A stretch of DNA of 64,000 nt. Origin: Marsupella aquatica. Its lineage: Eukaryota > Plantae > Marchantiophyta. The position numbers and the translations under genes were made by a program. Location: the NCBI GenBank assembly GCA_973895155.1, contig OZ316892.1, positions 5,995,878 through 6,059,877 of the forward strand, given 5' to 3'. This document shows, in pieces, positions 13,943-48,514 of this stretch. The first letter of the stretch is position 1. Each line of letters begins with the position of its first letter. The notes below the pieces were generated by a model. That model ran no database searches and was not told the origin of the DNA. It saw only the letters and a program-made list of their open reading frames with translations.

Positions 13943-13975
<33 letters not shown>

Positions 13976-26048: not shown

Positions 26049-26179
26049 CTGCAAGAACCTAGAGTGACAAGGGAAGTGGCCAAGTGAAACTAAATGTCCA
26101 TAATCTGTATGGCCTAGCGGGGCCCGGTTTGACCTTGCCCGTCAAACTGGGCGTTTGAGAGCGGCAAATTGACAACCCG

Positions 26180-26740: not shown

Positions 26741-26774
26741 AGAGGATAAAAGGAGGAGATCCCTCCTCTCCCTC

Positions 26775-26892
26775 CTCATTTTCGGTTTTGCAGAAAGGAG
26801 GAGAGGAGGAGAGGAGGAAGAGGAGAGGAGAGGAGGAGGAGGAGGAGAGGAGGTGGAGGAGGAGGAGGAGGAGAGGAGGAGGAGGAGGAGGT
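26775..26892 (+). repeat. (GGA)n/GA-rich microsatellite ending in a GTAAGT splice-donor-like site
   Basis: Direct reading; GAG|GTAAGT at 26890-26896. Confidence 0.75.
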
Positions 26893-27793
26893 AAGTGTTT
26901 GGTTTTGGTTTTTATTTTTTATTTTTGGTTTGTTTTTATTTGTTTGTGTTTTGTTTTGTGATTTTTTAAGTTTTTTTTGTGTTTTAAACCTTAACCTTAG
27001 AGCCAAATGGAGGGATATAAAGAAACACTTGTACGCACACGCTTTGAGCCTCGGTTCAGTTTGCGATACTCCGTACAAGAATTTCTTAATATCACCTTAA
27101 CAATTTAGTCTCCTTTGTTCATTAAGTAAAACATTTGCGGAGATAGAGGAATCCATGTACGCATGCTTAGAGTTTTGGCTCGGTCTGCGATACTTTGCAT
27201 GGATACCACGATTCGTCGAGAATGTTTTTACTTGAATTACAAATGAGTGTTAAGTTATAGACACCAAATCACATATGTCGAAGCAGGAATATAACAACTT
27301 TGAAAGAAAAGAACACTTTTGTGCGCATGCTTTGAGCGTCCACTCGGTCTGCGATATTTCACAAGTGTTGTCTTTCTCTTTTATTGTTGTTATATAGAAA
27401 GGTAATTAAAATCATGTGTGCAATAAAAATACATAATGCATGGGAGAAATAAACCGGGAAAAGATAATAACAATACGACTTGTAATTTTCAGGTTGGTCG
27501 TTGAATCCTTATTGGAAGGATTTTATTTAAATCCCAGTAAGATCTTGTTCCTCCCTCACATATTCCTTTTGTGAAGGGAAAACATGGTCATCGAAAATTT
27601 TAGTTTAGAGTATAGGCAAGTGTTGAAGATGATCACAAAACATGTGAATGAGGGATATGAGCCGAATCTTGTTGCTCTGGATGCATTGAAGAACGCTCGA
27701 AACACTCTCGAACATGCTAGGAATTCTAGCAAAGTGGCCGGGAAATGAAAACGGAAGGGGGCAAACGAAGAGGCAAAACAGGTTCGACACAAT

Positions 27794-29239
27794 GTGGTAG
27801 TGTCGATATGGAAAGAGATACTTTATCGCTACACTCAACCGAAACAGTATGGGGTGGACGGGTTCGAGAGGGAGTTCACAAGACACGGAGAGAAAGGATA
27901 CAAGAACTTTCTTGGTGAGATAACCCGTTGTATGCGGGAAAGTGTACAAAAGGAGGACAATTTCACACGAGAGCAAATGAAGTCATTTGAAGATGAAACT
28001 GAGAAACCGGGAGGATTTCTGGAAAATTTGGCACTCAACTTGGAGAAGCATGTTTGGGATAATTTGGCAGCCAAAGTGGAAGAGGGTGACACTACATTGC
28101 TTGGAAACCCCGGGATGTACACACACAAGAGAGAATTGCTAGTGAAGTGGAGTAAGGAGTTGGCAATGGCAAAATCTGATAGCAATGTCAAATATGCTAA
28201 CGAGATTGTGCACTTTGGGGATGTCAGCATCAAAAGTGCTCGAAAAGGAACACGTCCATCGCGTGTAGTTCCAGAGGTTAGGAGTATCCATTTTCTTAAA
28301 CCTGAGCAGGTGCACAACACACGTCGCATTGGGAAAGGAATCCAAGGAGAGGTATACACTTGTCGTATATTACATTGTCCTCTCATTCCCGTCAACGTGA
28401 CCTTAGTCGCAAAGCGGTTCAAGGATGGAGACAAGCATAAGAGACGAACTGACGCATTACAAGAAGTGCTTATGGGAGGACTGAATCATAAGGGAATCGT
28501 TGGAGCTCTTGCGTTGACTATTGAGGATCCGCCAAAACTTATTTACGATCACTATAATGGAGGTGACTTGGGTAGCTTTATTGATAAGTGCAGCATATCG
28601 TCAAAGAGCAAGGGGAAGGCACAGATCACGATGGACCTTGATTTCAAGTTTATTTCGGAGAAGAAACTCTTGTTGGAGAACCGGTTGGGAATCGCCTTGG
28701 CTTTGCTGGAGACACTGCAATACTTGCATGAGCATGATCGATTTCATTGTGATCTTCACTTTGGAAACATCCTTCTTCATTTCGATCACGAGCACGATGT
28801 GGCTATTAAGGTGTATGTTGGTTTATGTGATTTTGGCTTGTCTAAGCATAAATCACAGTGCAAATTACCAGCTAATCGGATGTGGCCCACAGCAACAGAA
28901 AAAGCAGCAACATACCAAAAACAATTTCCACAGTTGGCTCCGGAGCTTGTTCAACCTACCCCTGTCGAGTTTAGTGAAAGTACCGATATATATGCTTTGG
29001 GGAATATTTTTGAGACATTGTTGACAGAGAATTGGGATGGAATGTCTAAGGGTTCACGGTTTTTGGGGAGGGGTTGGAGTGCACAAGTGCATGGCCCCAA
29101 ATTGGATATCATAATCAGTGAAATGATGGCCACGGATGCCAAGAAAAGAATGGATTGTGCTTTTTGGAGTTTGAAGATAGTTCGAATGTTTCCAGATTGC
29201 ACATTGCATTTGCACAACAGTCCATATCTTAGAGATTAG
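27794..29239 (+). CDS. Protein kinase (ePK fold) carried by the hAT element; N-terminal extension broken by two in-frame TGA
   Basis: IGKGIQGEVY (Gly loop), VAK, QE (helix C), HCDLHFGNILL (catalytic loop), DFGLS, LAPEL, DIYALG; intronless; the frame extends upstream past TGA at 27746 and 27572. Confidence 0.88.
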   Translation: MVVSIWKEILYRYTQPKQYGVDGFEREFTRHGEKGYKNFLGEITRCMRESVQKEDNFTREQMKSFEDETEKPGGFLENLALNLEKHVWDNLAAKVEEGDTTLLGNPGMYTHKRELLVKWSKELAMAKSDSNVKYANEIVHFGDVSIKSARKGTRPSRVVPEVRSIHFLKPEQVHNTRRIGKGIQGEVYTCRILHCPLIPVNVTLVAKRFKDGDKHKRRTDALQEVLMGGLNHKGIVGALALTIEDPPKLIYDHYNGGDLGSFIDKCSISSKSKGKAQITMDLDFKFISEKKLLLENRLGIALALLETLQYLHEHDRFHCDLHFGNILLHFDHEHDVAIKVYVGLCDFGLSKHKSQCKLPANRMWPTATEKAATYQKQFPQLAPELVQPTPVEFSESTDIYALGNIFETLLTENWDGMSKGSRFLGRGWSAQVHGPKLDIIISEMMATDAKKRMDCAFWSLKIVRMFPDCTLHLHNSPYLRD

Positions 29240-29419
29240 GGTTTACACAATTTTGTAAAGGTCACCTTAACGATTATATGTTTATTCATTGTATGTCAAT
29301 TACAATGTTCTGCATTTTGTTGATAATATTCTATCAAACTTTGTCGTGAATGCCCAAAATTGTGCTAAATGTGTTTGTACATTGTCAAATATCGCAGATC
29401 TTTTGTACACATCGCAAAC

Positions 29420-31318
29420 ATGGGACGATGGGAATTGTCTTCTGATGATGAAGACAAAGAGTTCACGACACAACATCTTACCATGCAAGATGGTCAAGGA
29501 TCCTATTGTGACGATGAAGCTCTTCGTAATAATGTGTTGGATAATCTTACAACCATTGGCATTCACTATGAGGCTAAACCCAAGGTTGATGGAACACCGG
29601 CGCCAAACACAAGAAGATGGGAAGATGAGGGTATGAAGGATGAATGGAGTATATTAACGCCCAATGTAAATCCTCCCCATGACGAATGGGCCATGAATGC
29701 AAAGGAATTGGAGATGTTGATGCCAAAGAAAGACTTTTGGCCATTAGCACAACAAGTTTTTCACGATCCGGATCTTTGGGCAACAAGATCATGGGCGCAA
29801 GAAAAATTCACCATGTCCAAAGTAACACATGCAGGTGTTAAATCACATTGGCAGCAACAATATCGAGAGTTTGCTCCACACAAAGCCCAAACGAAAATGA
29901 GTTCCGTTTACCCTCCTTTTATCCGATGTCTGATTGCTGAATTCATTCTCAAGTGGAAGGTGGATTACCGTTGGGAAAACAGTGCTGGCAAGCTGACTCA
30001 TCAGGTGCATCCATCAGTGGTTGCGATTGCAACGAATAGGAATACAACTATTGCAAAGGACCCTTCAATGGAGACTTCCAACAAGGGATCCAAAAGAAAG
30101 CTAGATGACACTGGGGAGGGATATGCGCATGAGAAGGGGAAAGCGGCTGTACTTCCTCGAGTCTCCATGCCTGACCGTGCAGCACCACCAACCAATGTGG
30201 AGTCAACGCACACCAAAAAACCAATCCTTGTAGGTGTTGGGAGTAGAACTCCACATGCAAAGAACAACAATGTTACTGATGCTAACAAGGATAAGTTCAA
30301 CCTGCACAACATATGCAAGAGCTTGGGGGCAGATGTTGCAGAGGTGATTGAGACAAATCTCCGCACGAAGTATGTAGTGGAGCTATGTGAATGTGGCAGC
30401 ATCGAAAAGTTCAAGTCACAATTGCAACAAGCTGATATAAAGATGAGATCACTTGAGAAGAAGCAGAACGAGCCGACGACCAATTCGGAAGTGATGTTGT
30501 ACAAGTGTCAATTGTTTGACAAGATGGAAGAAATCAATAAGCTGACAAAACAACTTGCTGAAAAAGAGCGTCAATGCAATGAACTGGCACGACTTGAGGA
30601 GAAGGACAAGATCATTAATGATCTTAAAAGTGAACTTGCAACGCAAGCAATCATCATATCAAATCTTCACGAAGAGGTGCAAGAATTTAACAATGGTGCT
30701 TTGGGGATGAGGTCAAACAAAGGGCAAGGTGAATTATCGTCGCCAAATTTTGTTAACATGCAAATCATAGATCCTACAGGGCACAGCAACCTTTTTCCAG
30801 ATGTGGAGGTTGACGCGGAAGGTATTGATAGGTTTTTTGATAAGTGGAAAAAGGATGAAACTATGACAGCATTTGTTCGTGAAAAGGATGACAAGTGTAC
30901 TTGGTGCCTATATCCTTGGGGCCCTGAATCTGTTTCCATGTTGGGAACCTGCGGTCATATATGGCATCATGCTTGCTTGTCTAAATGGTTGAAGAAAAGC
31001 CGAAAATGTTGGTGTCGCACACCATTTCATGAACGTGAGTATGAGCAACGAGGATTGTTGAAGCAAATGCCATCAATAGAGACTCAACAAAATACTGAAG
31101 ATATGACTGAAGATATGACTGAAGATACTATACCGGCGATGCAAATAGATGAAACTCCCATTGAACATTTCACAATCAATGAATATAATTTGTCAGATGG
31201 GGAATTTGACAGGTTGTTATTCAGTGGTCGACTCGATGAGTGGAAACAATATGCGGCAGCCAACCAGCCATCAATAGATGAGCAAAATTTGCAACGATCC
31301 ATTTGGCGCCATCGATGA
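29420..31318 (+). CDS. Coiled-coil + RING-H2-like protein carried by the hAT element (ATG at 29420; ORF track starts at 29369)
   Basis: Intronless ORF over 630 aa; heptad-rich KMEEINKLTKQLAEKERQ region; CTWC..CGHIWHHACLSKWL..KCWC zinc finger. Confidence 0.8.
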   Translation: MGRWELSSDDEDKEFTTQHLTMQDGQGSYCDDEALRNNVLDNLTTIGIHYEAKPKVDGTPAPNTRRWEDEGMKDEWSILTPNVNPPHDEWAMNAKELEMLMPKKDFWPLAQQVFHDPDLWATRSWAQEKFTMSKVTHAGVKSHWQQQYREFAPHKAQTKMSSVYPPFIRCLIAEFILKWKVDYRWENSAGKLTHQVHPSVVAIATNRNTTIAKDPSMETSNKGSKRKLDDTGEGYAHEKGKAAVLPRVSMPDRAAPPTNVESTHTKKPILVGVGSRTPHAKNNNVTDANKDKFNLHNICKSLGADVAEVIETNLRTKYVVELCECGSIEKFKSQLQQADIKMRSLEKKQNEPTTNSEVMLYKCQLFDKMEEINKLTKQLAEKERQCNELARLEEKDKIINDLKSELATQAIIISNLHEEVQEFNNGALGMRSNKGQGELSSPNFVNMQIIDPTGHSNLFPDVEVDAEGIDRFFDKWKKDETMTAFVREKDDKCTWCLYPWGPESVSMLGTCGHIWHHACLSKWLKKSRKCWCRTPFHEREYEQRGLLKQMPSIETQQNTEDMTEDMTEDTIPAMQIDETPIEHFTINEYNLSDGEFDRLLFSGRLDEWKQYAAANQPSIDEQNLQRSIWRHR

Positions 31319-31879
31319 CGTCAACAACAGGCAGAGGTGAAAACAGAAGTTGTTGACAATAACAACAAAAGGAACTAAAACCAATAGTCTCTACATTTTG
31401 ATGTTATTTTCATGTAGTTACTATTAGAGACATTTTGTTAAAATAGAAGCGGCATATCCTCTTTGACAATTATTTTCAACTTGTAATTGGTAAAGAGATT
31501 TTGGAGTGACATTACATTGCATATCTCGTTGAGTACATATATTTTTCATTGGGGGCATGGCGTCGCCTTTTGGAGAATGTGTATTTTCGTAAGAATATTC
31601 CATCCTCCAATCAGCCATAGGTTTTGGAAGCATATTGTCGGGCTCACAATCATATTTTTGGACAAGTATGAGGAAAATAGACGTGATGAGAGACGGTAGC
31701 ACAGTAGACTCAGGTACTGATCCTTCTCTGAAATCATTTCCAAAAGGAGATCGTGTAGCACAATGAGTTCAACAAAGTCAACATCGCAATGGTTTTAGCC
31801 GCCCAAGTTGAGAATGATTTTGTAGAAGGATGTATACCTAAGTCCACTCACTTTTCCTGTCTTTCATAATTTTTTCCGC

Positions 31880-33210
31880 TATTGCTGCTACGGCCAATGA
31901 CATTCATGCACATGCGAACCGAGGCCAACGCCTACTCCTTTGCCCACCGCAAAAATGGGCCCTCATTACAACTTGAAGTTGAACGGAGTTTATTTGAGTA
32001 CGAGAGAAGTTCTGAAAGCAAATGCACTCTCAGGTCAAATTTTCAGGTCCTTCGAGCAAAAAATTACTGAGTATGTCATCGATCCGTTGGTTTCACAACT
32101 TCTCTCGTACTCAAATAAACTCTGTTCAACTTCAAGTAGCGTAGCTGCTACGACCAATGACATTCATGGGCATGCAAACCGAGGCCAACGCCTCTACATT
32201 TGCCTACCCCAAAAATGGGCCCTGATTAGAACTTGAAGTTGAACAGAGTTTTTTTCATTATGAGAAGGTTTATTCAAGCAATGGCACTCTCAGGTCAATA
32301 TTTCAGGTCCTCCTGACTTTGTTATTATTGAATATGTTCGTGCTCCGTTGCTTGAATAAATCTTCTGATAATGAAATGAACTGACCAATTACTGGAGTAC
32401 GGCTGCTACGGCCTATGACATTAATTCGCACAATTGCATGTTTATATCCTCTCCTTTCCGAATTCCAATTCGAGCTTGGACATCCTCTCGTCAGCTGGTC
32501 TCCACCATTGCAGTTGCTCTTCACGCAAACCAAGATAGCAGTCTCTAGAATCCTCGAACCTATTTTATTTCAATGCATCATTCATAGTGTTTGAGGAATC
32601 CAGAGGTTCGCATGAGGAGCAACTGAAAGGGTGGAGACCTGCTGACGAGAGGGTGTCCAAGCTCGAATTGGAATTCGGACAGGAGAGGATATAAACGGGT
32701 GAACTTTGACTTGAAATTGGTGACTGTATTTTGCGTCTGCATATCAATTTGGTGACCGATCTTGCGGAATCCCCGTGACCGTGTCTGATCATCATCATGA
32801 CATTGCTCTCCTTGGCCACCAATGGGCCCTCATTACAACTTCAAGTTGAACGGGGTTTATATGATTATGAGAAGGTTACTGATTATGTAGGCGATGTGTT
32901 CATTTCACAACTTCTCTCATAGTCATATAAACTCTGCCCAACTTCAAGTAGTGCAGCTGCTACGGTCAACGACATTCACCCACCCCAAAAATGGGCCCTC
33001 ATTACAACTTCAAGTTCAACTAAGTTTATTTTATTACGAGAAGGTTTATTCAAGCAATGACATTCTCAGGTCCAATAATGAGGTCCTCTCGACCTCATTA
33101 TTATTGAATATGACGGTGCTCTATTGCTGGACTAAATCTTCGCATAGTGAAATGAACTAACCAATTAATGGAGGGGGCTAGTATGGACTACGGCTGCTAT
33201 GGCCAACAAC
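31880..33210 (+). repeat. Internal dispersed/tandem repeats between the convergent cargo and transposase genes
   Basis: GCTGCTACGGCCAATGACATTCA and AATGGGCCCTCATTACAACTT.AAGTTGAAC recur at ~31884, 31953, 32144, 32213, 32402, 32821, 32956, 32989. Confidence 0.8.
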
Positions 33211-33445
33211 AAGGTACTTTGAAATAGTCAGTGTTGGAGATTTGGAAAACATGTTGCGTTGGTGTGTCTCTATGGCATTCTCAAATGCAAATACAAATAA
33301 ATTATTCAATCATTGTACAATAATAAACACACTGGAAGACAATACAATCATGTTACAAAAAATATAATTGTTTATAATTTTGTCTATGTCAGATACGACA
33401 ATATAAGAGTAGCAACACTTGATATTATCCTAATGAAAAGATGCT

Positions 33446-35738
33446 TCAAGGCTGTGAAGAGAAATTTCGTGCATTGTTGTTAAGATTTTTGCACAAAAGC
33501 GCATTCCACTCGTCTTGTTTGTCTCCCCAACTGAGTGGATCACGATTGTGTGACTGAACATTGTGCGATGTTTCTTGAAATGATGATATTCCTCGAAACC
33601 CACCAAGGCCAATAGGCCTGTTCGACGTATATGGATTCATGACACTTGGCCCTGCATACGCATTCAAGGGTGGACCTGCATGGTGTTGCCAGTTTGCATG
33701 TGGGTCGTTTGAAGTTTGACCTTCATGATTGTTGTATCCATGAAAAAAGGTTGATGTCCTTCCATTCGTCGGATGCCCTGCTGTGCCTGTGCGTTGCTCG
33801 TTGAAATATGGTCTGCTTGTGTCAACATCATTCGCAAAGTTCGACCAAGGTGACCTTGGTTGGGAAGGCATCATAAAGTTTATGTCCAGTGATGCATCTT
33901 CCTCGTCTTGGATTTGCGATTCATCAATTGTAGGATACATCTCCAAATCCATTTCATTCTCCCATTCCTCTGCAGCAGTGATGTCTGTATCTGGTGGAAT
34001 ACGAGTCAAGAACTCACTATCCTTATCCAGTGAAAATCCGTGTAGCAATTCATCAGCATCATCAATTGTATCATAATCTTCGACATCTTCTTCACCAAGA
34101 GCCGCACGTGTTGCATCGTACTCTTCATTGCTGCACAACTCCATGGAGATAGGTCTAGGTCCATCATTTGTTCTTCTTCTTTGGTCATAACGTTCATATA
34201 TAAACGTATGCGGGTTTCGAACATTTGTGAGCCCTTTCTCTACCCTCATGTTTGTAAATACAAACACCAAATCTTTTGCTCGATCATTTGTCAATCGATT
34301 GCGACTTTTGGAATGTATAAATCCATACGAACTCCAGTTTCGCTCGCAAGCTGATGCGCACACTTTTTGGTGTAAGATTCTTCGCGCCAGGATTCTCAAA
34401 TATTTATAATCTGCACCATACGCATGCCACCACTCTGCTGGACTGACATTACCTATACTTGATTGGGCGGCTCCCATCGCTATTGATGTGTTGGGATTTT
34501 TTTTGGGCGTCAATGGCTTGACTGTGGATGGCAGAAATAAGTTCTCTGACGTCGCGATCATGGTTGATCCCCTCCTTCACCTGTTGTTCTGAATATCTAG
34601 CAATGTATTCACTGAAACCCCTGTAGAGTTCTGGATCTCCAGCGACATCTATGTCCTCATCAAAAAACATTTGGGGATTGAGATATGTTGTCGCTAGCAT
34701 GAAATCAGTGGTAAGAGATTTTTTTCGATCCAAATACACTTTTAGTATCTTCGGTTTCAATACCTCTGTTACCAATGGACAATCCTCCATGCTTGCTTTC
34801 AAAACATCAATCCCTCTTTTCAAACTCCAATACAACCAACCTGATTGCGGAGAATCACCATCAAATTCTCGCAACATCTTGACCAACGGAGTAAAGAATT
34901 TAACTATATCCTTCACTTCAACCCAAAATGTATCTTGCTGTATCCACATTTTAAGTTCGTCTGCCTTTCCCCTCGTCATGTGTCCAGCTGATTTTGGTCG
35001 CAATGGAAGTCTATCACGATAAGACTGCCAATTATCATCAATGACCATCTGTTGTAAAGCTCCTCTTAGCTCCAACGCTCTTTGTGCCATTAGGAAATTG
35101 GTCGCAAATCTAGTTGCATTTGGATTCAACAGTTTTTTGTCAGGAGATTTTCTTGCAAATATTGCAGAAAGCTTTTGCGATGATGAAACTGCTTTTACTA
35201 TCCACCTCAACTGTTTAAAAATCTTTTGGAATGGATTCTGTCCAGCATCATCTAGCACTACACGCTTGTGACCACACATATCCTCTAGCAGCAAATTAAA
35301 CACGTGGGCAGCACACCAGCTCCAAGTGACATGAGGATACTTTTTCATGACTACCTCACAACCTGCTACGCGATTTGCGGGTGCTCCATCAGTTACAATT
35401 TGAATAATATGATCTGCACCAATATCCTCAATGTATTTCAACCACATGTCGCCAAGATATTTCCCATCTTTCTTGTCAGCTTGCGCAGCATTCCAACTAT
35501 CCAAGAAGAAGTCACCTTTAGAAGTCAACAACATGACATTCATCAAAGGTTCTCTTCGGACGTTTTCCCATCCATCTGAAGAAAGAGAATACCCATAAGG
35601 TTTTGCCTCCTTTAAAGTTTGCATCATGTCCTTTGTGAGATCCTCCTTACTGTCTTCCAATAATTTCAATCGCAAACTTCGCATCGTAGGTAGAGAATAA
35701 CCATTGACAATCCCTTTTGAAGTCTCTATGACTGCTTC
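33446..35738 (-). pseudogene. hAT transposase, catalytic and C-terminal part (DUF659 + dimerisation domain), with a 1-nt frameshift in the A8 run at 34497-34504
   Basis: SDGW, VTDGA, WCAAHVFNL, TRFATNF, WWHAYG..ARRIL..ASACERNWS..KSRNRL. Confidence 0.93.
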
Positions 35739-36199
35739 CTCGGGGGTCTCACTATATGGAGGACCCCCCCATCACCTGCGACGTTTTCATGCCTAGACCC
35801 CCATACTTATTAAGTTGAATTTTTTTTTTCCTCCCTCTTTCTTTCTTCTAAGAGTCTAAAATCCAAATTGTATTGCCCCTATAATTTGTGAAGTAAAGTG
35901 TCACATATCAATATAAAATGCCTAGAAAGAAAAGATAAGTCTATGTCAGTACCTTGTGAAGTCGTATGTCAGACATGGCACGCCCTGCAACAGTTCTTGC
36001 ACCTTTGTCAACCTTAAACTTTGATCATTTCAATGCATCATTTATATTGTGTACCTAAAAGGTCATCCCAATATAAACCTTACGTGCATAAGTGGGATGG
36101 CCTTTAAGGTCACAACATAAATAATCCATTCCACCCATTGATCACCAATCCCATGCTCCATCCATACTCCATTTAAAACTTATGTTGAGAGATGTAACA

Positions 36200-36283
36200 T
36201 GTGACGGAGGGGAATTGAACCCCTAATTGAGAAAGGATCTCAAGTTGCCAATCCGTCACCCCCTATCCTATCCCACTACACCC
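36200..36283 (-). other. Short tRNA-like/SINE-head fragment
   Basis: Minus strand reads GGTGTAGTGGGATAGG..GGGGTTCAATTCCCCT (A-box-like, then a T-arm/B-box hairpin); no convincing full cloverleaf. Confidence 0.35.
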
Positions 36284-36385
36284 ACTAATATTAACAAAAT
36301 AAAACATATATACAGACTCTCAAAAACTAAACAACAAAATAAAACATATATACAGACTCTCAAAAACTAAACAGTAACATGATAT

Positions 36386-39300
36386 TCATACCATTGTTTG
36401 AAGATACTGATCCAAAGCACGTCTATCTATTGGATCCAACACATAGATACGATCCATAACCCCTTCTTTCATGGTTAAACTAACACTAGCAATGACCATT
36501 TCAATATCCATCCATTTCAAATCAGTGGTATCATATCTGAATTCACTTTTGCTCTTACCAATAGGACTATACCAATTTAACAACAGTTCACAAATGTTAC
36601 CTGATTGCCCTGCAAGTGGATTTGGCCTATCCATCAAATCAATTGGTGACCGACAATTGCCCCACCTACTGCCATACTTCTGTCTCATTTGGACAATCCG
36701 ACCCAACCAAAAATATTTCTTACCTGCTGAGATTGCCTCCACCACAACCTTATTCTTTCCTCCCTTTCTTTTTCCAGATCTAGTACTTGGAGCAGGACTA
36801 TCATCAGACTCAAATGCAATTGCACAATCAGTGCCAACATCAACAAAACATGAGTTAGGATTGACTTCTTGCACTTTTCTCTTGCCAGTACTATAGTATA
36901 GCACTTGTTTCACCCTTGTCAGCCTATCTTTTGACAAATGCGGATTTCCTACCAACTGGCTTACCAGAGTGGATTTGTAAATCACCTTGCCTTCATAAGT
37001 AACAGTAGGCACTACCTTGGTACGATTCTGTACATTAGTTACAGCATGGACAACTGATCCAAACACATGCCGAACTTCATGACCTAATGTCTCAAGCTCA
37101 TCTGAGGGGTCTACATCAAACTGTATATCATCTCTGTGTACATCATCTGAATGCATCTCAGGAACAACAATGGGATCTGGTTCTGTTAACCATGCATCTA
37201 TTCTATTCAGATCATCCTCAGGATCTTCCAATTCATGAAAATCTCCAGTTGGGCGAGGACCTATGTCTGGTGGTTGGTGCTCTACTTGCTCCTCAGAATC
37301 ATTGCAAACAATTGCTTCCTTCAGAACCACCTCTAGTGGCCAGGTCTCACTTTCCACAACCCAAGGACATGTCCACCATCTCTTTCTAGCTGCTGGTAAG
37401 GAACTTCGTGGAGACATCTGCAATTGATGCATAAGATCCTTAGCAGCAACAAAACCTTCTTTAAGGGCTGCAACCACTAATTCATTAGTCTCAATGAGAG
37501 AATAGTCAAGTAGATTTGGTGCTTCCTCCCCTTCCCCTATAGGATGAATCTTCCCCCATACATGATCTTGTTTCTTATGTGAACGACCTATCTTCAAGCC
37601 TTCTGGTCCATATTCTAGGGCAGCAAGCCGGTTCAGTCCAACAGCACTATCCAACAGAGAGCCAAAATCATAATTCCGCTCATGGCCACTCATGCCTCCT
37701 ACCTTGCTGAAGAAAATCTCACAACAATCTGAACCTAGCAAGTGGAAGGGAACACCTAGATGTGGGAACTTATCTCGAAAGGCACAAATTAACAGCACAA
37801 TGAAATGACATGACATGTTAACATCATGAAAAGCCTGAATAGACATCATGTCTTTCTCAGTGTGTGCTGCAAAGTTCCCACCCACTGAATGGTCACCAAA
37901 CCTCAACCACAATCTCCACAAACGTAGAAAGAATGAAACCTTGGATGCTAACACAATACGGGACCTCAAATCATGAACTGGAGAAAAGAAAATATCTAAG
38001 TAATCTGCACAAATCTCCAAGTACAACTGAGTTCCTAAACTTCGTTCATGTTGTACATCTCTCCTCTCATACATATCTTTTAGACATTGCTGCACTCTTC
38101 TTGCTGCTATTCGTTGTGGACCTGCCCAATTCTGCCGGTCAGTCCTATTCACATCATCCCAAGCCATGCCATGTTCATGAATTGGATAATGATTGTAGAC
38201 ATTAGCTACATAAGATAAAGATGCATGTTGATCTCCTAGCACCAGTAAAGAAGACACTCTGTCTAAGGGGTTTATCATCTTTTTCCCATTATGAGGTTGG
38301 TCTTGGTCACCAAAGCCATACAAATCTCCATTTGGTAGAATTGAAACAGAGTATGTCCACCCTTCCCACCCAACTCCGTACCTTGGGTATGATCCATTCT
38401 GCCCTCTGTAATCTTCCAGCATCAGCTTTCGGCGACGTGCATCACCATCACTAGCATGTCCAAGCAAAGGGCCTACCATAGCTCTACAATATTCATCCCA
38501 AAAAGCCTTTAACTGGACCCAATGCTCTCGTACCCGGCCAAGAAGCTGTGAACTTATTACAAGTTGGAAGTGCACACACAGCCAATTTAGGTAAGGACTC
38601 ATGCAGAGGATTCACAATCACAACTCGGGCATACATGCACTTGGGGCATTGTTCAAATGTACTTACAATTTTATCATACCCCTCATCACCTTCACCAACT
38701 AGAATTTCCAAACCATAGGAGCATACATGCTGCTCTGAAGGTCCACAGAAACCAATGAGAGTATCATACTTTGCCTCCCACCTGAAACACAGACATGCAA
38801 TTTTTCAATATCACAGCAATTCCAGCCAAGTGCTACTTGTAAAGTCATTAAAAAAACAATTGGAAAAATGTCCAGTTCCAATTACCTAGGGCGTTCTTTG
38901 ATCCTTGTTTCATCCTCAGCAAAGATAACAGGCACATCCCCCTCAATGCCCAATGAGTGCTTTGCAGCAGACAACACTCTAGCAATCTCCTGAAAGGTTT
39001 CCTTCCGTAACCCGGTTCGAAAAGGTGTGAGTTTTGCTCTATCACGTTTTAGGGTCACAAGGCTAGGGGCTGTCAAGTTTCGTGCAAAACAATGAGCAAC
39101 TTGACGGCCCCCAAATTGGAACATAGCCTGAGCAATAGCTCGAGTCCTATTACTGTAACGATTACCTTTTGGCTTCCTGCCTAAATTGCGAGCTACATCC
39201 TTCAAGAAATCCCACAAACCCTCCTTACCACCAAATGCACCATTCCTGTGTCCATTCAAAATACTCCTAAGAAACAATCTCAAATCCTTCCTGTCTGCTG

Positions 39301-40966
39301 CAACTCCTAACAACTCCTCTAGTTTACGTTTCCTGGTGCTCAAGGCACATACTTTCTGAGCCTGCAAAGCTAACAACCAACGCTCTTTTCGTCGCACAGA
39401 GTTCAGGTTGTGCACTTGATCTCTTAACTCTGTGTTGGTCAAATAATCCAAACGTATACCACCAGCAGTGGTTCGGCTCCCTCTGTGGACTACTGCTTCC
39501 GCTTCCCTGTGCACCCGTCCACGAAAATCATCTTCTAGTGTTATAGAATCACATTCACTACAAGTTAGATTTTCAAATCCTCCTCCATTCTGTGATAACC
39601 TCAAGCAATCCTTGTCTCTAAAACAGCCTGCTATACTCACAACACTCTCTCTACTTGGATGGAAAACATCCAAGCAACAACTTGGCTCACAATGCCATGT
39701 AATTCCCCCAGACTGATCATCTAAAATGCCAGAAATATCATAAGATATACCCTTCCATAACAGTCGAGGCACACCTCTCTCTACCCATAATCCCCAGCAA
39801 AGCAAACTCAGACCAAGATCAACAAATTCACACACACCTGAACCTGAACCTGAACTGCTGCCTGTCCGGGACCCATCATCTTTAAAGAACTTCAAAATCC
39901 CGCTCTGACCAGGATGTAGGTCCCTAGAATCAGTCCTCTTTGGCCTGCCCCTCTTCCCAGACCTCAAGGCAAGCATTTTTGTGTCATGCCTAGTCTCCAA
40001 TGCATCCAAGTGATCTCGACTCACTAAGTGTGTCCTCAAATTGGGCTCCAAGGTAAGCTTCTTGGGGCACAAGTCAGTGTGAAGCATTCCACAGACAGTG
40101 CAGCGAACCTTAAATAGGAAAGACCTGTTTACATACTCAGGAGTACTGGGATCAGGAACAATAGAGAATAGTTTGCCATCATCCCCAAGCTCAGCATTCA
40201 ATCGCTGAACTATCTCAACACCTACTTTGATGGCGTCTGCATGATCATATTCTGGCTTCTCAGAGATGTCTGCTACCTGAACCAAAGTAGAAGGAATGCC
40301 CCTTCTCCGACAATAGTTATCCTTGTGCTTATTGAAGACCAAGTGTTTGGTCTTAAAATTACTAAAGCAATTGGAGATGGATTTAGGGTTCTGAGAGTTG
40401 TCTGCATTGCCATAAGTTTCCCTACATTCAAGACACTCCAGATGCCCTCGAACATCTGTCCCCTCATCCCAGGTACGAATTCTCCAATTGTGATCACCAT
40501 AACCCTTCTTATGTACCCATTTCTCTAACCTCATCCACTCATCTTTCCATAGCTTTGATGGGACATCTCCCATCAATTGTGACTCAAAAGAAGCCCTTAC
40601 AGGGGAGGGTGCTAGTGCTGTTGGCCTCAGTTGTGGTGTCTCAGTATTTGGACCCAATGATGCAGGAGTGCAAGGATGACAGGGTACTGGTGGGATCCTC
40701 CCACCATCTCCAAGTTCTTGTTGTACAACAATAACTCTTCCATCCAGCTCAGACAGATCAATTAATTTCTCATGTACAAGTTTCACTCGACCAGGAAGTC
40801 TCTCATCCCAAAAATCGAAGTCAAAGTCTAGAGTAGAGGCAATACGAGCCCTAAAATCATGTAGGGTGTGTCCTTCTTTGAATGACAAAACACAGATTGG
40901 TAAATCAGCCTTGTCATCCCCAACTTTGCGTATTAATTTAACAGAGTTGGGTTTAGGGGCTGCCAT
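36386..40966 (-). pseudogene. P-element-like DDE transposase, ~1490 aa reconstructed; intron 38782-38885; one frameshift near 38535
   Basis: Ordered motifs FAEDETRIK, DTLIGFCG, HASDGD, DQPHNGKKMINPL (DxxH), DRQN, GSDCCEIFFS resemble the P/THAP9 catalytic core; N-terminal CxxC..H zinc-finger-like motifs and an AT-hook (KRGRPK). Confidence 0.75.
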
Positions 40967-41465
40967 TGCAATACAAATCTAGAACATGCATAGCACCATT
41001 GCTTTTGGAGTCGATAACAGAAAGACCTGCACAAATACATTTGAAATACACACAAGGGAAACACATTAGGATCTTCAAGAGATGCAATGACAACATACAC
41101 ATTCTCATGTCAGTAATGTACATAATGTCAGCATACATTTAACAATAGAAGTGCTAATAGGCCAAAACACTTTATAATGCAATCCATCATACATGCAAAT
41201 GTATTCAGTGAAAATCATGATATACCGTTAAAGTTGGATAAAATATCTTTAGAAAAAATATCCTTTTTGCCTAGTTTTCTAACAATTCCTGAGGTTTAGT
41301 GCTTTTGCTCATCAAAATGCAGCACTATTAGTGACCGTAATTATGACAAAATGTCAACACTAATAAAATTGGGTACTACCACCCATGATGCAGCTTAAGT
41401 ATATGCCTTGCTCATACCCCACTAAGACGTTGAAACCTAAGTAATAGGTTTGTTCATTATTCAGA

Positions 41466-42215
41466 TCACTGGAGCCATGAAATGTGGTCCCTGATTGGAG
41501 TCTTCAGGTGTGGATCAATAGGATGACGGGGGCAATAAAACATCTGTCGCTGTTGTCCATGTGCTTCATGTTCCCAGATGTCCCTATCATGAGCAAACCC
41601 TTTGCTTTTGATCATCTGGAGACAATCTGTATGCCAGGCATTTGGACATCGTAAACATTGTACCATGTTCTTGACCATCTGACCCTCAAGACTCTGATAA
41701 CATGTCACACATGTATGCAGTGGGCAGGACTTTGCAGCAGCTACCAAACACCCAAAGCAATAAAATCGTACACAAAAATGATCAGAGCATTTTCGCACAA
41801 TTGTAGGTGACGGTCCCACAGTGCGGCACCCATAACACATGGCCTGGTCCTGGTTACAATTTGGGCAAAACCATGGCTTCCCTCCATGATGGAGGGGAAG
41901 GACTACACAGGGGCAAGAGTCATTAGGGGCTTCATCTCCAACCACATAATGAAATTGCCTGTGACATGGCCCATCACAAATTACCAACTTCCCACCATGC
42001 TCACAAATTGCACAAACATGAGGGCTGGTTTGTAGAATCTCTTGCTCAGAGAACAAGGGAATACACAATACCTCTTCTAAAGAGGATTGTGTTGCTTTCT
42101 TTATGTTTGAAGTCCTTGTCGGCATGGTTACAACTGAAATCATCACAAAGCACATCACATATGAGAGGGACATGTATGATACTGGGCAATCCATAGAACT
42201 TGGAGAAATCCACAT
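41466..42215 (-). CDS. EDM2/NSD-type tandem PHD-finger protein carried by the P-like element (true start uncertain)
   Basis: CAICEHGGKLVICDGPCHRQFH..WFCPNC..CYGC..CPLHTCVTC..CLRCPNAWHTDCL..FYCPRHPIDPHLKTPIRDHI follows the EDM2 PHD-cluster pattern. Confidence 0.85.
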   Translation of the reverse strand: MWISPSSMDCPVSYMSLSYVMCFVMISVVTMPTRTSNIKKATQSSLEEVLCIPLFSEQEILQTSPHVCAICEHGGKLVICDGPCHRQFHYVVGDEAPNDSCPCVVLPLHHGGKPWFCPNCNQDQAMCYGCRTVGPSPTIVRKCSDHFCVRFYCFGCLVAAAKSCPLHTCVTCYQSLEGQMVKNMVQCLRCPNAWHTDCLQMIKSKGFAHDRDIWEHEAHGQQRQMFYCPRHPIDPHLKTPIRDHISWLQ

Positions 42216-42467
42216 TTGAAGTAGTTACAAACCTGCTCCAATGATCTGCAAACCTCCCTCCCAGATGAAGTCAACTACACAGTGCAGCCTGGACACCCAC
42301 CAACCAAGACATACATAAATACAATGCCAGCTTGCGAAACTTTGCCACATAATGGGAATGAAAATTATTCTCATATATCATGGATGGTACAATTGCAGCC
42401 TTGCAAACAAAGGCCTAGTCATCCCGGACCTCAAGTCATGAACAACGCATCCATGTACTATCAGGGA

Positions 42468-42866
42468 CTACAATGTCAAGCATCCATGGGCTGTAACCTT
42501 AGCTTGACCTGGAATACTATCTGGGGCTACAATATCAAGCTCAGTTATATGTGGAATACTATCTAGGACTACAATGTCAAGCGTGTCCGGGATGACAATC
42601 TTGCGTAAAAGACACTCATTTTGAGGCCAAATGGTTGGCCTTATACAAGAGCACCTCCAGCGACGTGTGACAACTTTGCCATGCTTTCCCATGTATGTCC
42701 TAGTAACAAGTCTTCCACGCATTTTCAAGCAGAAGCAATGGAACCATTCAAAATTGCCATCACCAACCCTGCACTTCACACAAGATTCGCACCAGCAGCA
42801 TTCATCTGGATGCTGCAAAAGGAGCTTCTCATAATTCGCTTCTAATGTAATGCCCAATTTAGCCAT
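42468..42866 (-). CDS. Small Cys-rich ORF of unknown function in the P-like element, possibly an upstream exon of the PHD gene
   Basis: 132 aa, ATG start, CCWCESCVKC..HCFC..CSC, same strand as the neighbouring genes. Confidence 0.35.
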   Translation of the reverse strand: MAKLGITLEANYEKLLLQHPDECCWCESCVKCRVGDGNFEWFHCFCLKMRGRLVTRTYMGKHGKVVTRRWRCSCIRPTIWPQNECLLRKIVIPDTLDIVVLDSIPHITELDIVAPDSIPGQAKVTAHGCLTL

Positions 42867-44999
42867 GGCACTATTTTTTTTACTCGGTGAATGGCCAGGC
42901 GATCAGACGTGCAATGACAGGCAACTTACAATTCACTAGGTACAGTATGTGCTCTAGCAAACTGCTTCACCGCAAGTGCTGGTGCTCACAGCTACAAGCA
43001 CTGATTGCTTTTGCAACCTGTGAACAAAATTAAAACCACCAGTTCAATAAGTTTCAAATGCTGCAAGCACTGAAGACAACCAATTGGCCATGATGCATGT
43101 TACGACAGCAATAAACAAATAATTGGGCTCAACAGACCTGAATAGCTAACCTGAATAGCTAACCTGAATAGGATCATGGACCTCTCATAGCTATGGTGTC
43201 CTTCCTACATTACACATTGGTCTAATTTATGCAGTGTTTCACTATGATTGTGTTCCATAGAAGAGCATCCAATCTGGCTGACCATTGGAGGAAGCTTGGG
43301 CTGGGTCATAGCTACAGCAATTACTCCTCTGCAAATGCTATTTGTTGGTAACACATGTTTACTCATCAGTAGATGAATGAAGCATCTGAGGTTTTTGAAA
43401 CTTGTGCTCTGATGAGGGAGTGAGTGACGTGGGAGCCATGATAATCATAGATTCAATGCAAAAGCAAAATCCGTGCTCAAAGGCAAACGTGGCAAAATTG
43501 GGTATATGTTCTTCACTGCCAAAGCTTCTGTTTGCGCAGCAAAATCCACGAAAGGAATGAAGGAACAAGGGGGAACTCCAGACTCAAGAGCCTCAATTGC
43601 TGCATTGTGGAAACGCGTTGCGTGGGAGAAGTCATTGGCTTGTAGAAGAAGTAAAAGTGTGCTGGTGAAGGATTTTGTGGTCGGGGTGCATCATAAGGTT
43701 GACACAGAGAAGAGAGAGGTGTGGAGAGGCGAGGAGAGGAGCAGAAAAGTAGGAAAGGCCGTGTAAGGCAGTCGATAAAAAGCGAGTTAGGTTTGGAGTG
43801 TCCTCTCGACAGCAAAGGATTTCGTGTGTGCTGAATTTGTTGCTGGTCCAAATTCCAGGAGCCAGTCAGTAACGGAATAGTGGAATTTTGGGAATAGCAG
43901 ATGCTCATCAGTCGCAGCATCTGCGTATGTTTTGTCATCTGGGGAGAATTCAATGAGGTTTGTGGTTTTGGGGAAGGCTGCTGTGAAGAGTTTGTGTTCG
44001 TGTGGAGGGATTGGTGGCAAATTTTGATTGGTGCAGGGCAGAAGTAGCAAGAGATGGGAGAGTGACAGGATGTGGAGATCGGTTGGCCGTAACCAAGGCA
44101 GCGCCAATGACGACGAGGAGCGCGAAGAGGCAAAGGCGGAGGAAGATGAGGAGGTAGAAGAACCAGACCACCAAATAGAGAATTTACTACATCAAAGACA
44201 CTACAGAGATGAGCGCATCAATGGGCTACAACATATTCAAGTGTGGATCCCTTTTTTGCAATCAACTCACGGAAATAGAGGATTTACACTTACTTGCCCC
44301 ACCACAAATCATTCTTGGAAGTGTCTTCCTTGACAACACGTTTGTCCTTCGGAGATCGGCCAGTTTTCGCCCCGGAAAGCGTGGCAAGAGCCCCTGTCCA
44401 GGTGATGTACAAACTCTTCTCGTGCTTCAGAGCCTGTTCGTAAAGCGCTGCAAAGAGAAACGGCAAAAACTTTAGTCATTATAATTGAATCAGAACATGG
44501 GAACAGACAGAGACAGCTTCCAAACGCTCAACTAAATCCTGAAGCAACAACCATGACGATCGCGACCCATATGCGGCGAATGGACACAACTATGCTAGGA
44601 CAGGACACAACGAGAGGGCACCGATCACCGTATCTAGAGAGCTGATTTATTCGTCTCCTACAAATCATAAGTCGCACAGTAGAGTTTCTACGCATCTTAA
44701 CGTAGGAACGAAGGTAAAAGGTAGTTTTTTTACCAGGCATCCTTGGAAATGAAAGCAACTTTTGAACTATCGACATGATGTGACAGAGTACAAGAAAGGC
44801 CTTCAGTGCATGTGAAACAGAAATGCTAGAACTACTCATGAGTTCACATGAAACACAATTCCCCGGTCTAACTACTTTCAAATCTCGATGGGCAAATCTA
44901 ATGCATATGACTTGCGCAAGCAATGTCTATGGAACACATCGGCTACGACCGCTACCAGATAAGGTGTGCCATGCGTGGTACATATGGGCTTCAAACAGT

Positions 45000-45965
45000 A
45001 GCAAGCAAGCATGATTGAGCGTCAAACAATAGCAAGCAAGCAAGCACGATCGTCAAAGCAGGAAGCGCCCACCTCCTGGTTGAGCAACACAGCAATGCTG
45101 GCAGTAGCCCTCGCAATCCTGTTTGAGCAAGCAACAATGCAACACTCTCGCTCCCGTTTCAGCAAGCTAGTAGCTCCCGTTTCAGCAAGGTAGCAGCTTC
45201 CGTTTCAACAAGCAGCAACGCCACACTCCCGGCACCCACCTCTTGTTTGAGCAGCTGCAACGCAGCACTTGCAACAGCCACACTCCCGCCCGCACTCCCT
45301 GTTTGAGCAACAACACAGCAGTCACATAAACTTTCCTATCATTTCAGCAACAGGAACGTAGCACACTCCCTCAACCAAGACAATAGCGCACCTATACACT
45401 CCAACCTTGCAGCGCAACACTCTCGCCTAATCCTTCATTCCCGGGTTCACTCCAAGCAGCAGTGCAACCGAGAAGTCTCGCTCTCCCCTTTACTCTAAGC
45501 AGCAGCGCAGCTGAGAAGTCTCGCTCTCCCCTTCACTCTAAGCAGCAGTGCAGCTGAGAAGTCTCGCTCTCCCCTTCACTCTAAGCAGCAGCGTAGCCAA
45601 GAACGACCTTGATCCTTCACTCCCAAGTAGCAGCGCGCAGTCGAGAACTCTGGGTTGATCCTTCACTTCAAGCAGCAACAGCAGCAACGCAGCCGAGAGC
45701 GCAACACTCTCGCTCTCCTCTTCACTCCAAGGCGCAGCCAACAACTCTCGCTCGATCCTTCGCTCTAAGCAGCAGTGCAGCCAATAAATGTTGCTTGATC
45801 CTTCACTCCAAGCAGCCGTAGCAGCAGCGCAGGCGAGACCACAACACTCTCGCTCGATCCTTCTTCACTCACAGCCGAGAGCACAACACTCTCGCTTGAT
45901 CCATCTTCACTCGCATCCGAGGTCACAACACTCTCTCTCAATCCTTCTTTGCTCCAAGCAGCAGC
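45000..45965. repeat. Subterminal tandem repeats of the P-like element, including a 43-bp unit
   Basis: TCGCTCTCCCCTTCACTCTAAGCAGCAG.GCAGCTGAGAAGTC x3 at ~45475-45600, plus degenerate ACACTCTCGCT..ATCCTTC..CACTC units. Confidence 0.85.
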
Positions 45966-46517
45966 ACACTCGTTTAGACCCCCGTTTACACCATTTGCTG
46001 CAAGGTACAAACAAAAGAGTCTCTCATCCCAAACAGCGGGTGGGGCCAAAGGGATATTGGAGGGAAATGACACGGGAGGAGACTAAGAAGGGCGGCCAAT
46101 TGAGGGAAACTAGACATGTTAAACGGAACAATTTCAAACTTAATCCCACTCAAACCCTAAACGTGAGTCCCCAAAAAACCAGACCCACTTAAATCATTCT
46201 CAAATTAGAATCCATGTTAAAATAAACATGACTTAGGAAAATATATTGAGAATGTTATGTGTGCCATGTGTACCAATGATATAGTGACACGTGTAATTTA
46301 CATAGTCCGACACAAAGACCCCCTAACTTCCTTGTATGCCTTCCATCTACATAGTCAAAAATATTAATATCCCTATTATTCTTACAAGTTGTCCAACATA
46401 TAAAATTGACCCTATTGTTCTTACACAAATCTTCTTAAGTCTTCCGAGAAACCCAATTAACGGACCCTATACTTAGTCGCACGTGATATGAGATTTTCGC
46501 GAAGTGAGACCCCCGAG

Positions 46518-47137
46518 ACTGCTTCTCGAAAAAAAGGATTATTTGAAACATTGAATGGAATACCACTGGTGTAGAAAGCTTTCGCCCAAAGCTTATCCAA
46601 ATTTGTTCTATTTGGAATTTGATAGGCATCCATAATTGGGTTAGGAAGATTTACTGGCCTATCTCCTTCCCTTACATGTGTATCATCCATGTCAACATAG
46701 TTTGACCCTCGTGTGGATGCTTGCGAATATGAACTTCCAACGCTTGGCCTACGACCTCTCACATCCCGCAAGATATGACTTCCATCTCGTCGTTTGTACT
46801 TTAAGGTCGGTGGAACCTTTATCACATTGTACATAATGTTGATGGCATCCAAATCGACGACACCATAGAGTTGCATGCAAGGGGGCGCATCCCCTTTTTG
46901 GATGTTTCCCATCAAATGCGCCTTTGCTCGTGTTGCATGATGAGTAACGTATGTTAAACAATACTTGCATCTTCGATAGATACGATTGACATCATGACAT
47001 GTTGAAGGCGCATCACATCGTTCAAAATATCTCCACACTGGAGATTGTTTTGAAGGGTGTTCTTGCACACGAGTTGGACCAGGCCTGGGAGTAGTGGAAT
47101 GATATCCAGTTTCATGCGAATCCTCTTCATCGGACAT
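46518..47137 (-). pseudogene. hAT transposase N-terminal part with BED zinc finger, separated from the rest by the nested element
   Basis: MSDEED..SPVWRYF..CKYC..RAKAHL..C; AFYTSGIPFNVSNNPFF; the joined product is 967 aa after removing the insertion and one extra A. Confidence 0.9.
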
Positions 47138-47709
47138 TGTTACGACTCTCAATGGTAAAAAAATAAAAGGGTTGATTCTTTTGATTTTGTGAATATAACA
47201 AATATAGTACAATGGGTTACTTTCCTGAATTATCGCAGACTGGGCCTAAGCTCAAAGCATGCGCAGGAAAGTTTCCCAAATTCTTATATTTGTCAACATC
47301 CCTACTTCAACCTATGTTATGTAATATCTATAACTTCACAATAGTTTATCTTTGAAGTGAACATATGTACGAGAAATCGTGATACCCATATGAAATGTCA
47401 TAGACCGAGCCAAAGCTCTAAGCATATGCACATGGGTATCTCTTTACTCGCAAGTAGTTCACTTTCAAACAAAACAATGATGCAAAGTTGTTAAGGCGAT
47501 ATAAGGAACTTCTCGTACGAATTATCGCAGACCGAGCCGAGCTCAAAGCATGCGCGTACAAGAGTTCCAATGTATCCCTCCGATCTCTCCCTAATGCTAA
47601 ACCACAAGAGAGAGAAACACAATGAGACTGTGGATTAGTGAAATGAATTAGTTATTCCTACTTATACTAAATCATCTACTTCTTATCCTCTCTTAAAACT
47701 CTTAATCTT

Positions 47710-48250
47710 TGATCCTAACCCTAATTGCGCCTCCCTTAACCCTAATCTCGCGCCCCTAACCCTAATCCCGCCTCTAACTCTTCCCCGGCCACCAATTCCC
47801 GAGCCCCGTCCCCGAACCCCGCACCCCGTTCCCCGAACCCCGCACCCCGTTCCCCGAACCCCGTTCCCCGCATCCCCGAACCCCCTACCTCGTTCCCCGA
47901 ACCCCGTTCCCCAAATCCTCGAATCCCGGCCCCCCTTTCCCGCCCCCCCTTCCCCGGTTCCCCGAATCCTCTTCCCCGAATGCCCCCCGTCCCCGGTTCC
48001 CCGAATCCCGTCCCCCGGGCCACCTTTACCCCGGCCGGCCCCGGAAGGGTCCGGGCAGGGTTTGGGTGGGGGTCCGGGGAGGGTTCGGGAAAGGCCCGAG
48101 AGTCCGGGGAGTGTTCGGGGGAGGGTCCGGGGAGGGTCCGGGAAGGGCCCGGGAGTCCGGGTTCGGGTCAGGGGGAGTTCGGGTTCAGGTCCGGGGTGCT
48201 CGGGAGGTGTTCGCGAAAGGTCCGGGGAAGTCGGGGTTCGTTCGGGAGAA
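47710..48250. repeat. Right subterminal GC-rich array: CCCTAA boxes, then C-rich CCCCGAACCCC, then a switch to G-rich GGGTCCGGG
   Basis: Direct reading; strand skew inverts at ~48040. Confidence 0.9.
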
Positions 48251-48514
48251 TCTTCAGGAATATACGTCAAATTGCGTGTTTTCGGGCCGTCATTTGACGA
48301 TTTGACGTGCCCGACAAGGCGTCAAGGTGCCTGTCAGATTAAACCGGGTAGCGGGGTGTAACAATTTACATGCAGCATAGATAGAAGTCGTCTATAAAGG
48401 TCTCCAAAATATATTGAATAAAATTTACGAAAGTTCTTAGGAGTACCTGATGGTTGCCTTCAATATGCTAGTCCAGAACGTGCCTGAAAAGGTGCTGGCC
48501 AAAAAGGTGCAATA

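Follow-up and report, generated by a model that had tools for sequence, protein, structure and literature searches.

The stretch of DNA analysed here, called the window, comprises 64,000 nucleotides of contig OZ316892.1 of the liverwort Marsupella aquatica (GCA_973895155.1, positions 5,995,878 to 6,059,877 of the forward strand). It contains a complete terminal-inverted-repeat (TIR) DNA transposon of 10,779 bp at 35739-46517, whose transposase of 1490 amino acids (aa) probably belongs to the P type. The transposon interrupts the transposase gene of a host hAT element and carries, besides its own transposase, a passenger open reading frame (ORF) with PHD fingers. The insertion was delimited by the following features.

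26123..48348, minus strand: host hAT element with its own 8-bp duplication (TAGCGGGG) and imperfect CCCGGTTT ends; its transposase (DUF659, Dimer_Tnp_hAT) is split by the insertion
35731..35738, no strand: target site duplication, left copy, 8 bp (ACTGCTTC)
35739..35753, no strand: 15-bp TIR CTCGGGGGTCTCACT, which is the 3' end of the element on the strand of the transposase
45419..45960, no strand: internal 42-43-bp direct repeats near the 5' end of the element
46503..46517, no strand: 15-bp TIR, the 5' end of the element, exact inverse of CTCGGGGGTCTCACT
46518..46525, no strand: target site duplication, right copy, 8 bp (ACTGCTTC)

An earlier note, made from the sequence alone, had described a perfect 15-bp TIR, an 8-bp target site duplication and the precise interruption of a hAT frame. 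All were confirmed by exact matching, a scan of the window, in silico excision and empty sites. Perfect inverted ends with an 8-bp duplication formed the sole such structure in the whole-window scan, and none was obtained in 20 shuffles of the window. When the element and one copy of the duplication were excised in silico, the hAT frame was open again across the junction, and the split halves carry the DUF659 and hAT dimerisation domains of Pfam. Contigs of four read runs (X1, X2, X4 and X6, with three organism labels and from three studies) were compared with the window. The empty-site joint 35729->46517 was present in contigs of all four, indicating that uninterrupted hAT copies exist; one of the runs, X1, may be the window's own sample. 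A 9-bp asymmetric duplication was formally possible at the window element, and was rejected because the relative L003, described below, has an unambiguous duplication of 8 bp.

The transposase gene lies on the minus strand. Its predicted exons and catalytic residues were placed as follows.

38886..40966, minus strand: predicted first exon of the transposase, starting with ATG at 40966 and coding for the ubiquitin-like domain, the two CxxC..H..H fingers, the AT-hook, the cysteine domain, the coiled coil, the helix-turn-helix and D685
end of exon 1, minus strand: catalytic D685, the first D, counterpart of Drosophila D230
38782..38885, minus strand: GT..AG intron of 104 nt (predicted), just downstream of the codon for the first catalytic D
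36386..38781, minus strand: predicted second exon of the transposase, coding for the remainder of the RNase H fold, the helical insertion domain, the catalytic E, an acidic linker and the C-terminal domain
38534..38537, minus strand: 4 extra bases that shift the frame in the window copy
38447..38449, minus strand: catalytic D804, counterpart of Drosophila D303, kept in 65/65 homologs
38293..38302, minus strand: DxxH motif, where the insertion domain begins, equivalent to Drosophila D339/H342 (D in 64/65, H in 65/65 homologs)
37718..37720, minus strand: catalytic E1047, counterpart of Drosophila E531, invariant in 65/65 aligned homologs; the D at -3 is equivalent to D528

The length of 1490 aa was obtained after the predicted 104-nt intron and the 4-nt insertion were discounted. 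The 104-nt GT..AG stretch (38885-38782) holds an in-frame stop and does not occur in full-length relatives, and the ORFs of the homologs P0002, P0008 and P0010 start right behind the predicted intron point. We read this stretch as a predicted intron. The frameshift near 38535 was checked in the reads: the 4 extra bases were absent at full depth in contigs of X1 and X6 and at about half of the contig depth in X4, and X2 contigs had zero cover at the site. The insertion may be a private mutation or an assembly error. The protein of about 1490 aa claimed by the earlier note was retained after these two corrections, and so was its size of about twice the usual (1490 against 751 aa). The claim of a single frameshift did not hold: the raw DNA is broken at two places, one of which is the predicted intron.

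The motif order claimed for the transposase was borne out, with D685, D804 and E1047 as the catalytic residues and DxxH between the last two. The first catalytic D was kept in 63 of the 65 aligned homologs. The core of the homolog P0016, which is 47% identical to the C-terminal part of the window protein, was modelled with a predicted local distance difference test (pLDDT) score of 81, and the model contained an RNase H Asp-Asp-Glu (DDE) core with the P-type helical insertion domain. In Foldseek, this model matched the Drosophila P transposase structure 6p5a with E 1.3e-10 and a template modelling (TM) score of 0.72 of the target; the next family was RAG1 with 2.5e-3. With VIA, the alignment to P transposase reached Z 24.3 over 413 aligned residues at a root-mean-square deviation (rmsd) of 4.3, and the next match had Z 8.4. 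A profile of the 65 homologs reached 6p5a with E 0.017 at rank 2 among chance hits, in an alignment that pairs D230 with the first aspartate and D339/H342 with DxxH.

Among the Atlas language-model neighbours, the two best were basidiomycete clusters, followed by THAP9/P-like ones; they carried TNP-like RNaseH/GBD Pfam families at scores of 0.91-0.96, and THAP9-like transposases stood at 0.95. The Pfam scan, which covered 83 of 200 homologs, gave P-type matches that were weak in five, with one above the cut-off (P0095, PF12017). A coiled coil and a helix-turn-helix before the RNase H fold were indicated by a long helix at residues 511-543 in the model of the N-terminal half of the window protein, by the helix-turn-helix match given below, a region that the alignment of the 65-homolog profile to 6p5a covers as well, and by PF12017 in P0095. 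PDB searches with the single sequence or a narrow profile found no transposase. Taken from the predicted fold of the homolog, the profile alignment and the language-model neighbours, the P-superfamily identity proposed earlier is supported, and the window element would be a divergent member of the broad P superfamily, not of its THAP-bearing animal subgroup.

The window transposase resembles that of Drosophila melanogaster P (6p5a/6pe2) in its predicted helix-turn-helix, split RNase H fold and helical insertion domain, in the D/D/E residues, the DxxH motif, the D at E-3 and the coiled coil before the helix-turn-helix. The elements share the 8-bp duplication and the 5' C and 3' G termini. Unlike the Drosophila protein, which has 751 aa and a THAP domain, the window protein has 1490 aa with a ubiquitin-like domain, fingers, an AT-hook, and cysteine and C-terminal domains, and its first two catalytic aspartates (D1 and D2) are 118 residues apart, against 72 in Drosophila P. 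The window element further differs in its CT ends, its PHD passenger ORF and its plant host.

Animal P elements have 5'-CA termini as a signature. The earlier note had pointed out CT instead of CA ends, and this was found again in relatives. Among 80 metagenome loci, 55 were testable for ends, and 25 were excluded for want of a usable hit or flanks. Locus L003 was an independent complete element of 6096 bp with 26-bp perfect ends starting CTCGGGGG, an unambiguous 8-bp duplication and a transposase in a single open frame of 1520 codons. The ends of the window element also start CTCGGGGG, and L002 has one similar end, again CT. On these two complete cases, CT ends and the 8-bp duplication are traits of the family. 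Duplications of P elements are 7-8 bp and at times 9 bp long (PMC3698922), with which the window element and L003 agree. End candidates at L006, L033 and L055 were rejected as chance matches of AT-rich or simple-repeat sequence. Degraded copies were also observed in long, AT-rich, CpG-poor contigs with a guanine-cytosine (GC) fraction of 0.31-0.36 (L006, L014, L016, L028, L029, L033, L037, L052 and L078), and these probably inserted into plant genomes long ago.

Homologs were found in Riccia sorocarpa, R. fluitans and Calypogeia fissa, and full-length forms had about 1420-1530 aa. When 30 clusters were checked for species-named members, two of them added Ceratodon purpureus, with a 115-aa member of the cluster of P0039, and Adiantum nelumboides. 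No seed plant was among the species-named members found. Except for a few with automatic labels such as 'Transposase' or 'C2H2-type', the named homologs bear the labels hypothetical, uncharacterised or unnamed. The wider clade comprised 809 clusters at E<=1e-30 and 4927 at E<=0.001. The complete P-like element of the earlier note stood. It is not a rarity, being one of a family that occurs in liverworts, mosses and a fern, and the note's remark that P is rarely reported in land plants was compared with open papers. The land-plant host was supported by a flanking 2-oxoglutarate (2OG) dioxygenase exon, whose best named relatives were from Calypogeia fissa (65%) and then Riccia (52%).

In quick trees, the window, the named species and their relatives formed one group, with support in the Shimodaira-Hasegawa-like approximate likelihood ratio test (SH-aLRT) of 99 in the larger tree, from which 94 of 201 sequences with less than 85% cover had been dropped, and of 92 in a second tree of 46 chosen rows without L058, which had no usable frame. 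In the 46-row tree, the liverwort, moss and fern branches had SH-aLRT values of 81, 92 and 91, a grouping roughly like that of the hosts. Judged from these sequences, inheritance from a land-plant ancestor would fit, which is not proof, and the family is likely an old, THAP-less lineage of seed-free land plants.

The domains added to the catalytic core, together with the helix-turn-helix, were placed as follows.

40709..40957, minus strand: ubiquitin-like (beta-grasp) domain, predicted, residues 4-86; many ubiquitin-like matches with Z about 6
40010..40435, minus strand: a pair of zinc-finger-like CxxC..H..H units that start at residues 178 and 289
39938..39952, minus strand: AT-hook-like RGRPK
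39512..39829, minus strand: cysteine domain (C-x-G..W..EP..G-x-FR..C..CxxC), directly before the coiled coil, at the place of THAP in P
39023..39229, minus strand: helix-turn-helix region, residues 580-648, aligned to P transposase 134-199 with a middling score (Z 5.6, rmsd 3.7, 65 aligned)
36389..37015, minus strand: C-terminal domain, about 200 aa

The ubiquitin-like domain and the fingers were seen almost solely in the plant group, and the cysteine and C-terminal domains reach wider. The cysteine domain also occurs in homologs outside the plant group, and a profile of the last 270 residues made from 13 close relatives matched 79 of the 200 homologs at the C-terminal domain. PDB profile searches with the C-terminal or the cysteine domain gave nothing useful, and the best Atlas lead for the C-terminal domain scored just 0.75; from its sequence pattern, our guess is that it may be a BAH/SH3-like barrel. 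The model of the N-terminal half also had ribosome-hibernation-factor-like matches (Z 6-7, residues 123-225), which may reflect only a common arrangement. Distant members of the clade carried other add-on domains, namely Tudor (E 1e-9), SAP (E 6e-10), C1 (E 5e-6) and a weak OTU-like match (P0072, P0086, P0097 and P0048).

The transposase had been described as lacking a recognisable THAP domain and as having CxxC..H fingers and an AT-hook instead, and both parts were confirmed. The THAP family of Pfam had no match in the window pieces or in the 83 homologs, many of which are N-terminally incomplete, and no C..C..CxxH pattern was present in exon 1. THAP was not listed in the fold searches with the N-terminal half, which barely covered residues 240-480. 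Because THAP is reported to be restricted to animals (PMC7776569), its absence is expected outside them.

Transposition of Drosophila P depends on guanosine triphosphate (GTP) and leaves 17-nt 3' overhangs, and P is described as unique among transposases in its use of GTP (PMC7776569). The nucleotide is contacted by K385, K400, V401, S409, F443, D444, N447 and D528, and the 3'-terminal G of the element contacts it as well (PMC7776569). The window transposase was identical at two of these eight residues, D444 and D528, and had K385->G, K400->N, V401->W, S409->A, F443->L and N447->F, where the mapping of K385-N447 lies on a low-scoring stretch (-0.2 bits). With the same low-scoring mapping, K385 was replaced by G in 54/65 homologs and K400 by N or D in 57/65, N447 was mostly hydrophobic and D444 variable. 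The counterpart of D528 was kept in 56/65 homologs, and the 3'-terminal G is kept in the window element. THAP9, which has a THAP domain, keeps part of the contact set, the counterparts of F443, D444, N447 and D528 (PMC10824691), in contrast to the window clade at N447 and D444. Two conserved arginines near the pocket, R379 and R390, could stand in for the lysines. Because of the low-scoring mapping, these substitutable arginines and the partial set in THAP9, the apparently rebuilt pocket, which the earlier note did not mention, is a lead and not a result.

The passenger ORF lies on the same strand as the transposase and was likewise not mentioned before.

41466..42224, minus strand: passenger ORF of 252 open codons that encodes PHD fingers of the NSD type (PF23004 E 1e-7; NSD2 E 4e-6)

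It is possibly the last exon of a longer gene. Its contig depth was similar to that of the transposase in X1, X2 and X4, suggesting that most copies likely include it. The PHD ORF and the other non-transposase parts had no match in the 80 metagenome loci, and the PHD gene is absent from L003. Upstream of it, a cysteine-rich frame of 144 codons (42468-42902) without Pfam matches is possibly another exon of the passenger gene. The 5' 3.4 kb of the element (43078-46349) holds short ORFs and 42-43-bp repeats. In three runs, contigs end loosely or have letters replaced near 43100 and their depth drops over 43146-46349, suggesting that copies likely differ in their 5' part.

X1 contigs of 0.5-1.1 kb had 0-4 differences from the window at depths of 450-530. 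Recent spread is suggested by the identical ends and duplication, the empty site in four of four runs and the near-identical contigs of high depth, and the element was probably mobile recently. The recent activity claimed by the earlier note was upheld to this extent. Depletion of CpG in the transposase region fits long residence under methylation and shows no current activity.

We concluded, with a probability of roughly 0.85, that the element is a complete TIR transposon that likely moved by cut-and-paste and was mobile recently, that its transposase is predicted to have the P fold, and that it is likely a member of an old lineage of seed-free land plants that lacks THAP. Several points weigh against this conclusion. 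The core fold was predicted on a homolog and not on the window's own protein, identity to P transposase is just 11-13%, P transposase came only second in the search with the 65-homolog profile, amid chance hits of like E-value, and the three transposase pieces of the window had no informative Pfam match, P-type ones included. A convincing second pair of ends was found at only 1 of 55 loci, most of which are too short or degraded. Tree supports are SH-aLRT values only and mostly below 95, and most rows carry no species name. The window transposase is nearer to that of Riccia than to that of Calypogeia, and the flanking host gene is nearer to that of Calypogeia, a discord indicating that paralogous lineages or transfers exist. 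As for mobility, contig depth gives no copy number, X1 may be the window's own sample, and the observed/expected CpG ratio of 0.28 in the transposase region, against 0.70 in the hAT element, shows no current activity.

Other superfamilies in which 8-bp duplications or a DxxH motif occur, such as hAT, KDZ/Zisupton and Kolobok, were considered as homes for the element. Zisupton makes 8-bp duplications, and Kolobok has a DxxH motif and a TTAA target duplication. The hAT superfamily shares the 8-bp duplication, as the host element itself does, and the cysteine clusters and large size recall KDZ. The structure of the hAT transposase Hermes, however, was matched with Z 6.9 against 24.3 for P, and PF05699 matched the host hAT and not the P-like transposase. 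At the thresholds used, no Pfam family of hAT, KDZ or Kolobok was found in the window pieces or the 83 homologs, and the 8-bp duplications of the window element and L003 are not TTAA. No solved structure of KDZ/Zisupton or Kolobok is known to us in the structure library, and none of KDZ/Zisupton was among the fold-search matches. Membership of one of these superfamilies is highly improbable. A separate superfamily that is sister to P, sharing the fold and having its own ends, domains and cofactor needs, deserves more weight and still appears unlikely. It would agree with the CT ends in both complete elements, the D1-D2 spacing of 118 against 72, the identity at only 2/8 residues of the GTP pocket and the lack of a P-type Pfam match in 78/83 homologs, and also with the cysteine and C-terminal domains across the clade and the large size of the group (809 clusters at E<=1e-30). 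On the other hand, the profile reaches 6p5a in one round (E 0.017), P0095 passes the PF12017 cut-off, the Atlas neighbours are THAP9-like, and the element resembles P in duplication length, DxxH, the D at E-3 and the order of its domains. Repbase, moreover, merges groups whose profiles converge (PMC4455052).

A divergent branch within P is thus preferred, and Repbase or Dfam may already contain such a lineage from bryophytes or ferns, in which case only its description would be new. This is compatible with our conclusion, and we think it possible, on balance doubtful. Repbase lists P families of Chlamydomonas, and a 'DNA/P' class turns up now and then in automated annotations of plant genomes. 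The closest Atlas clusters are basidiomycete, and P-like elements are known outside animals, in Trichomonas (PMC3698922), in Allomyces and Pucciniales (PMC5751038) and in Polysphondylium and Aureococcus (PMC3985635). The transposases of Allomyces, Pucciniales, Trichomonas and Aureococcus, from fungi and protists, are likewise non-animal members of the P superfamily. Against an existing entry, P is not listed among the six TIR superfamilies of plants in Table 1 of PMC9033089 or among the seven DNA-transposon superfamilies of plants in PMC6839031, and the named homologs are mostly labelled hypothetical, uncharacterised or unnamed. In the available passages of PMC7466625, PMC4455052, PMC10288648, PMC12477816 and the bioRxiv centromere atlas, no plant P element appears, and searches of open papers, covered mostly by title and the start of the abstract, gave no report of P elements in land plants. 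GingerRoot and Replitrons, which use unrelated enzymes, are precedents, having gone unnoticed in plants until genomes of seed-free species were examined (PMC6839031, PMC10288648). A P lineage in liverworts, mosses and a fern would add a superfamily to the plant lists of six or seven, and annotation based on Pfam misses it, as 78 of the 83 homologs had no P-type match.

For the P-like transposase of the window, a mechanism can be proposed. The enzyme would pair both ends through its helix-turn-helix, and the zinc fingers, AT-hook and cysteine domain may take the DNA-tethering role of THAP at subterminal positions. The D685-D804-E1047 site would excise the element and join it across the 8-bp stagger. 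The insertion domain would keep the P architecture with a rebuilt pocket, in which GTP may be bound differently or not at all. We infer that the PHD passenger would likely read histone marks and so direct insertion or oppose silencing. The frameshifted window copy would be moved in trans by sister copies without the 4-base insertion. The same predicted fold with a changed pocket would make the need for GTP directly testable, and the THAP-less protein would illustrate end recognition by a P transposase that lacks this domain. Assays of the enzyme are possible, since there are near-identical relatives without interruption (L003).

A stronger version would be a large uncatalogued branch of P, inherited since the land-plant ancestor and still jumping in liverworts, with a GTP-free or rebuilt pocket and with the fingers, AT-hook and PHD reader replacing THAP. 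We hold this version to be tentative and rather less probable than its opposite. If true, it would amount to a natural experiment on the GTP requirement of P and would supply plants with a native vector of the P type.

The host hAT element has GC-rich subterminal repeats and carries two passenger ORFs on the plus strand, one for a protein kinase (27749-29239) and one with a RING finger (29369-31318). Its transposase has a frame change of its own at 34449-34576, between the catalytic part and the dimerisation domain, and direct and inverted repeats of 50-200 bp lie at 31884-33173, between the RING ORF and the end of the hAT transposase. Elsewhere in the window, ORF fragments at 4990-14238 look by eye like a decayed CACTA/En-Spm element, and a 302-codon ORF at 20975-21883 has the look of a CAAX-protease-type membrane protein. 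An array of 46-100-bp direct repeats is present at 58058-58781.

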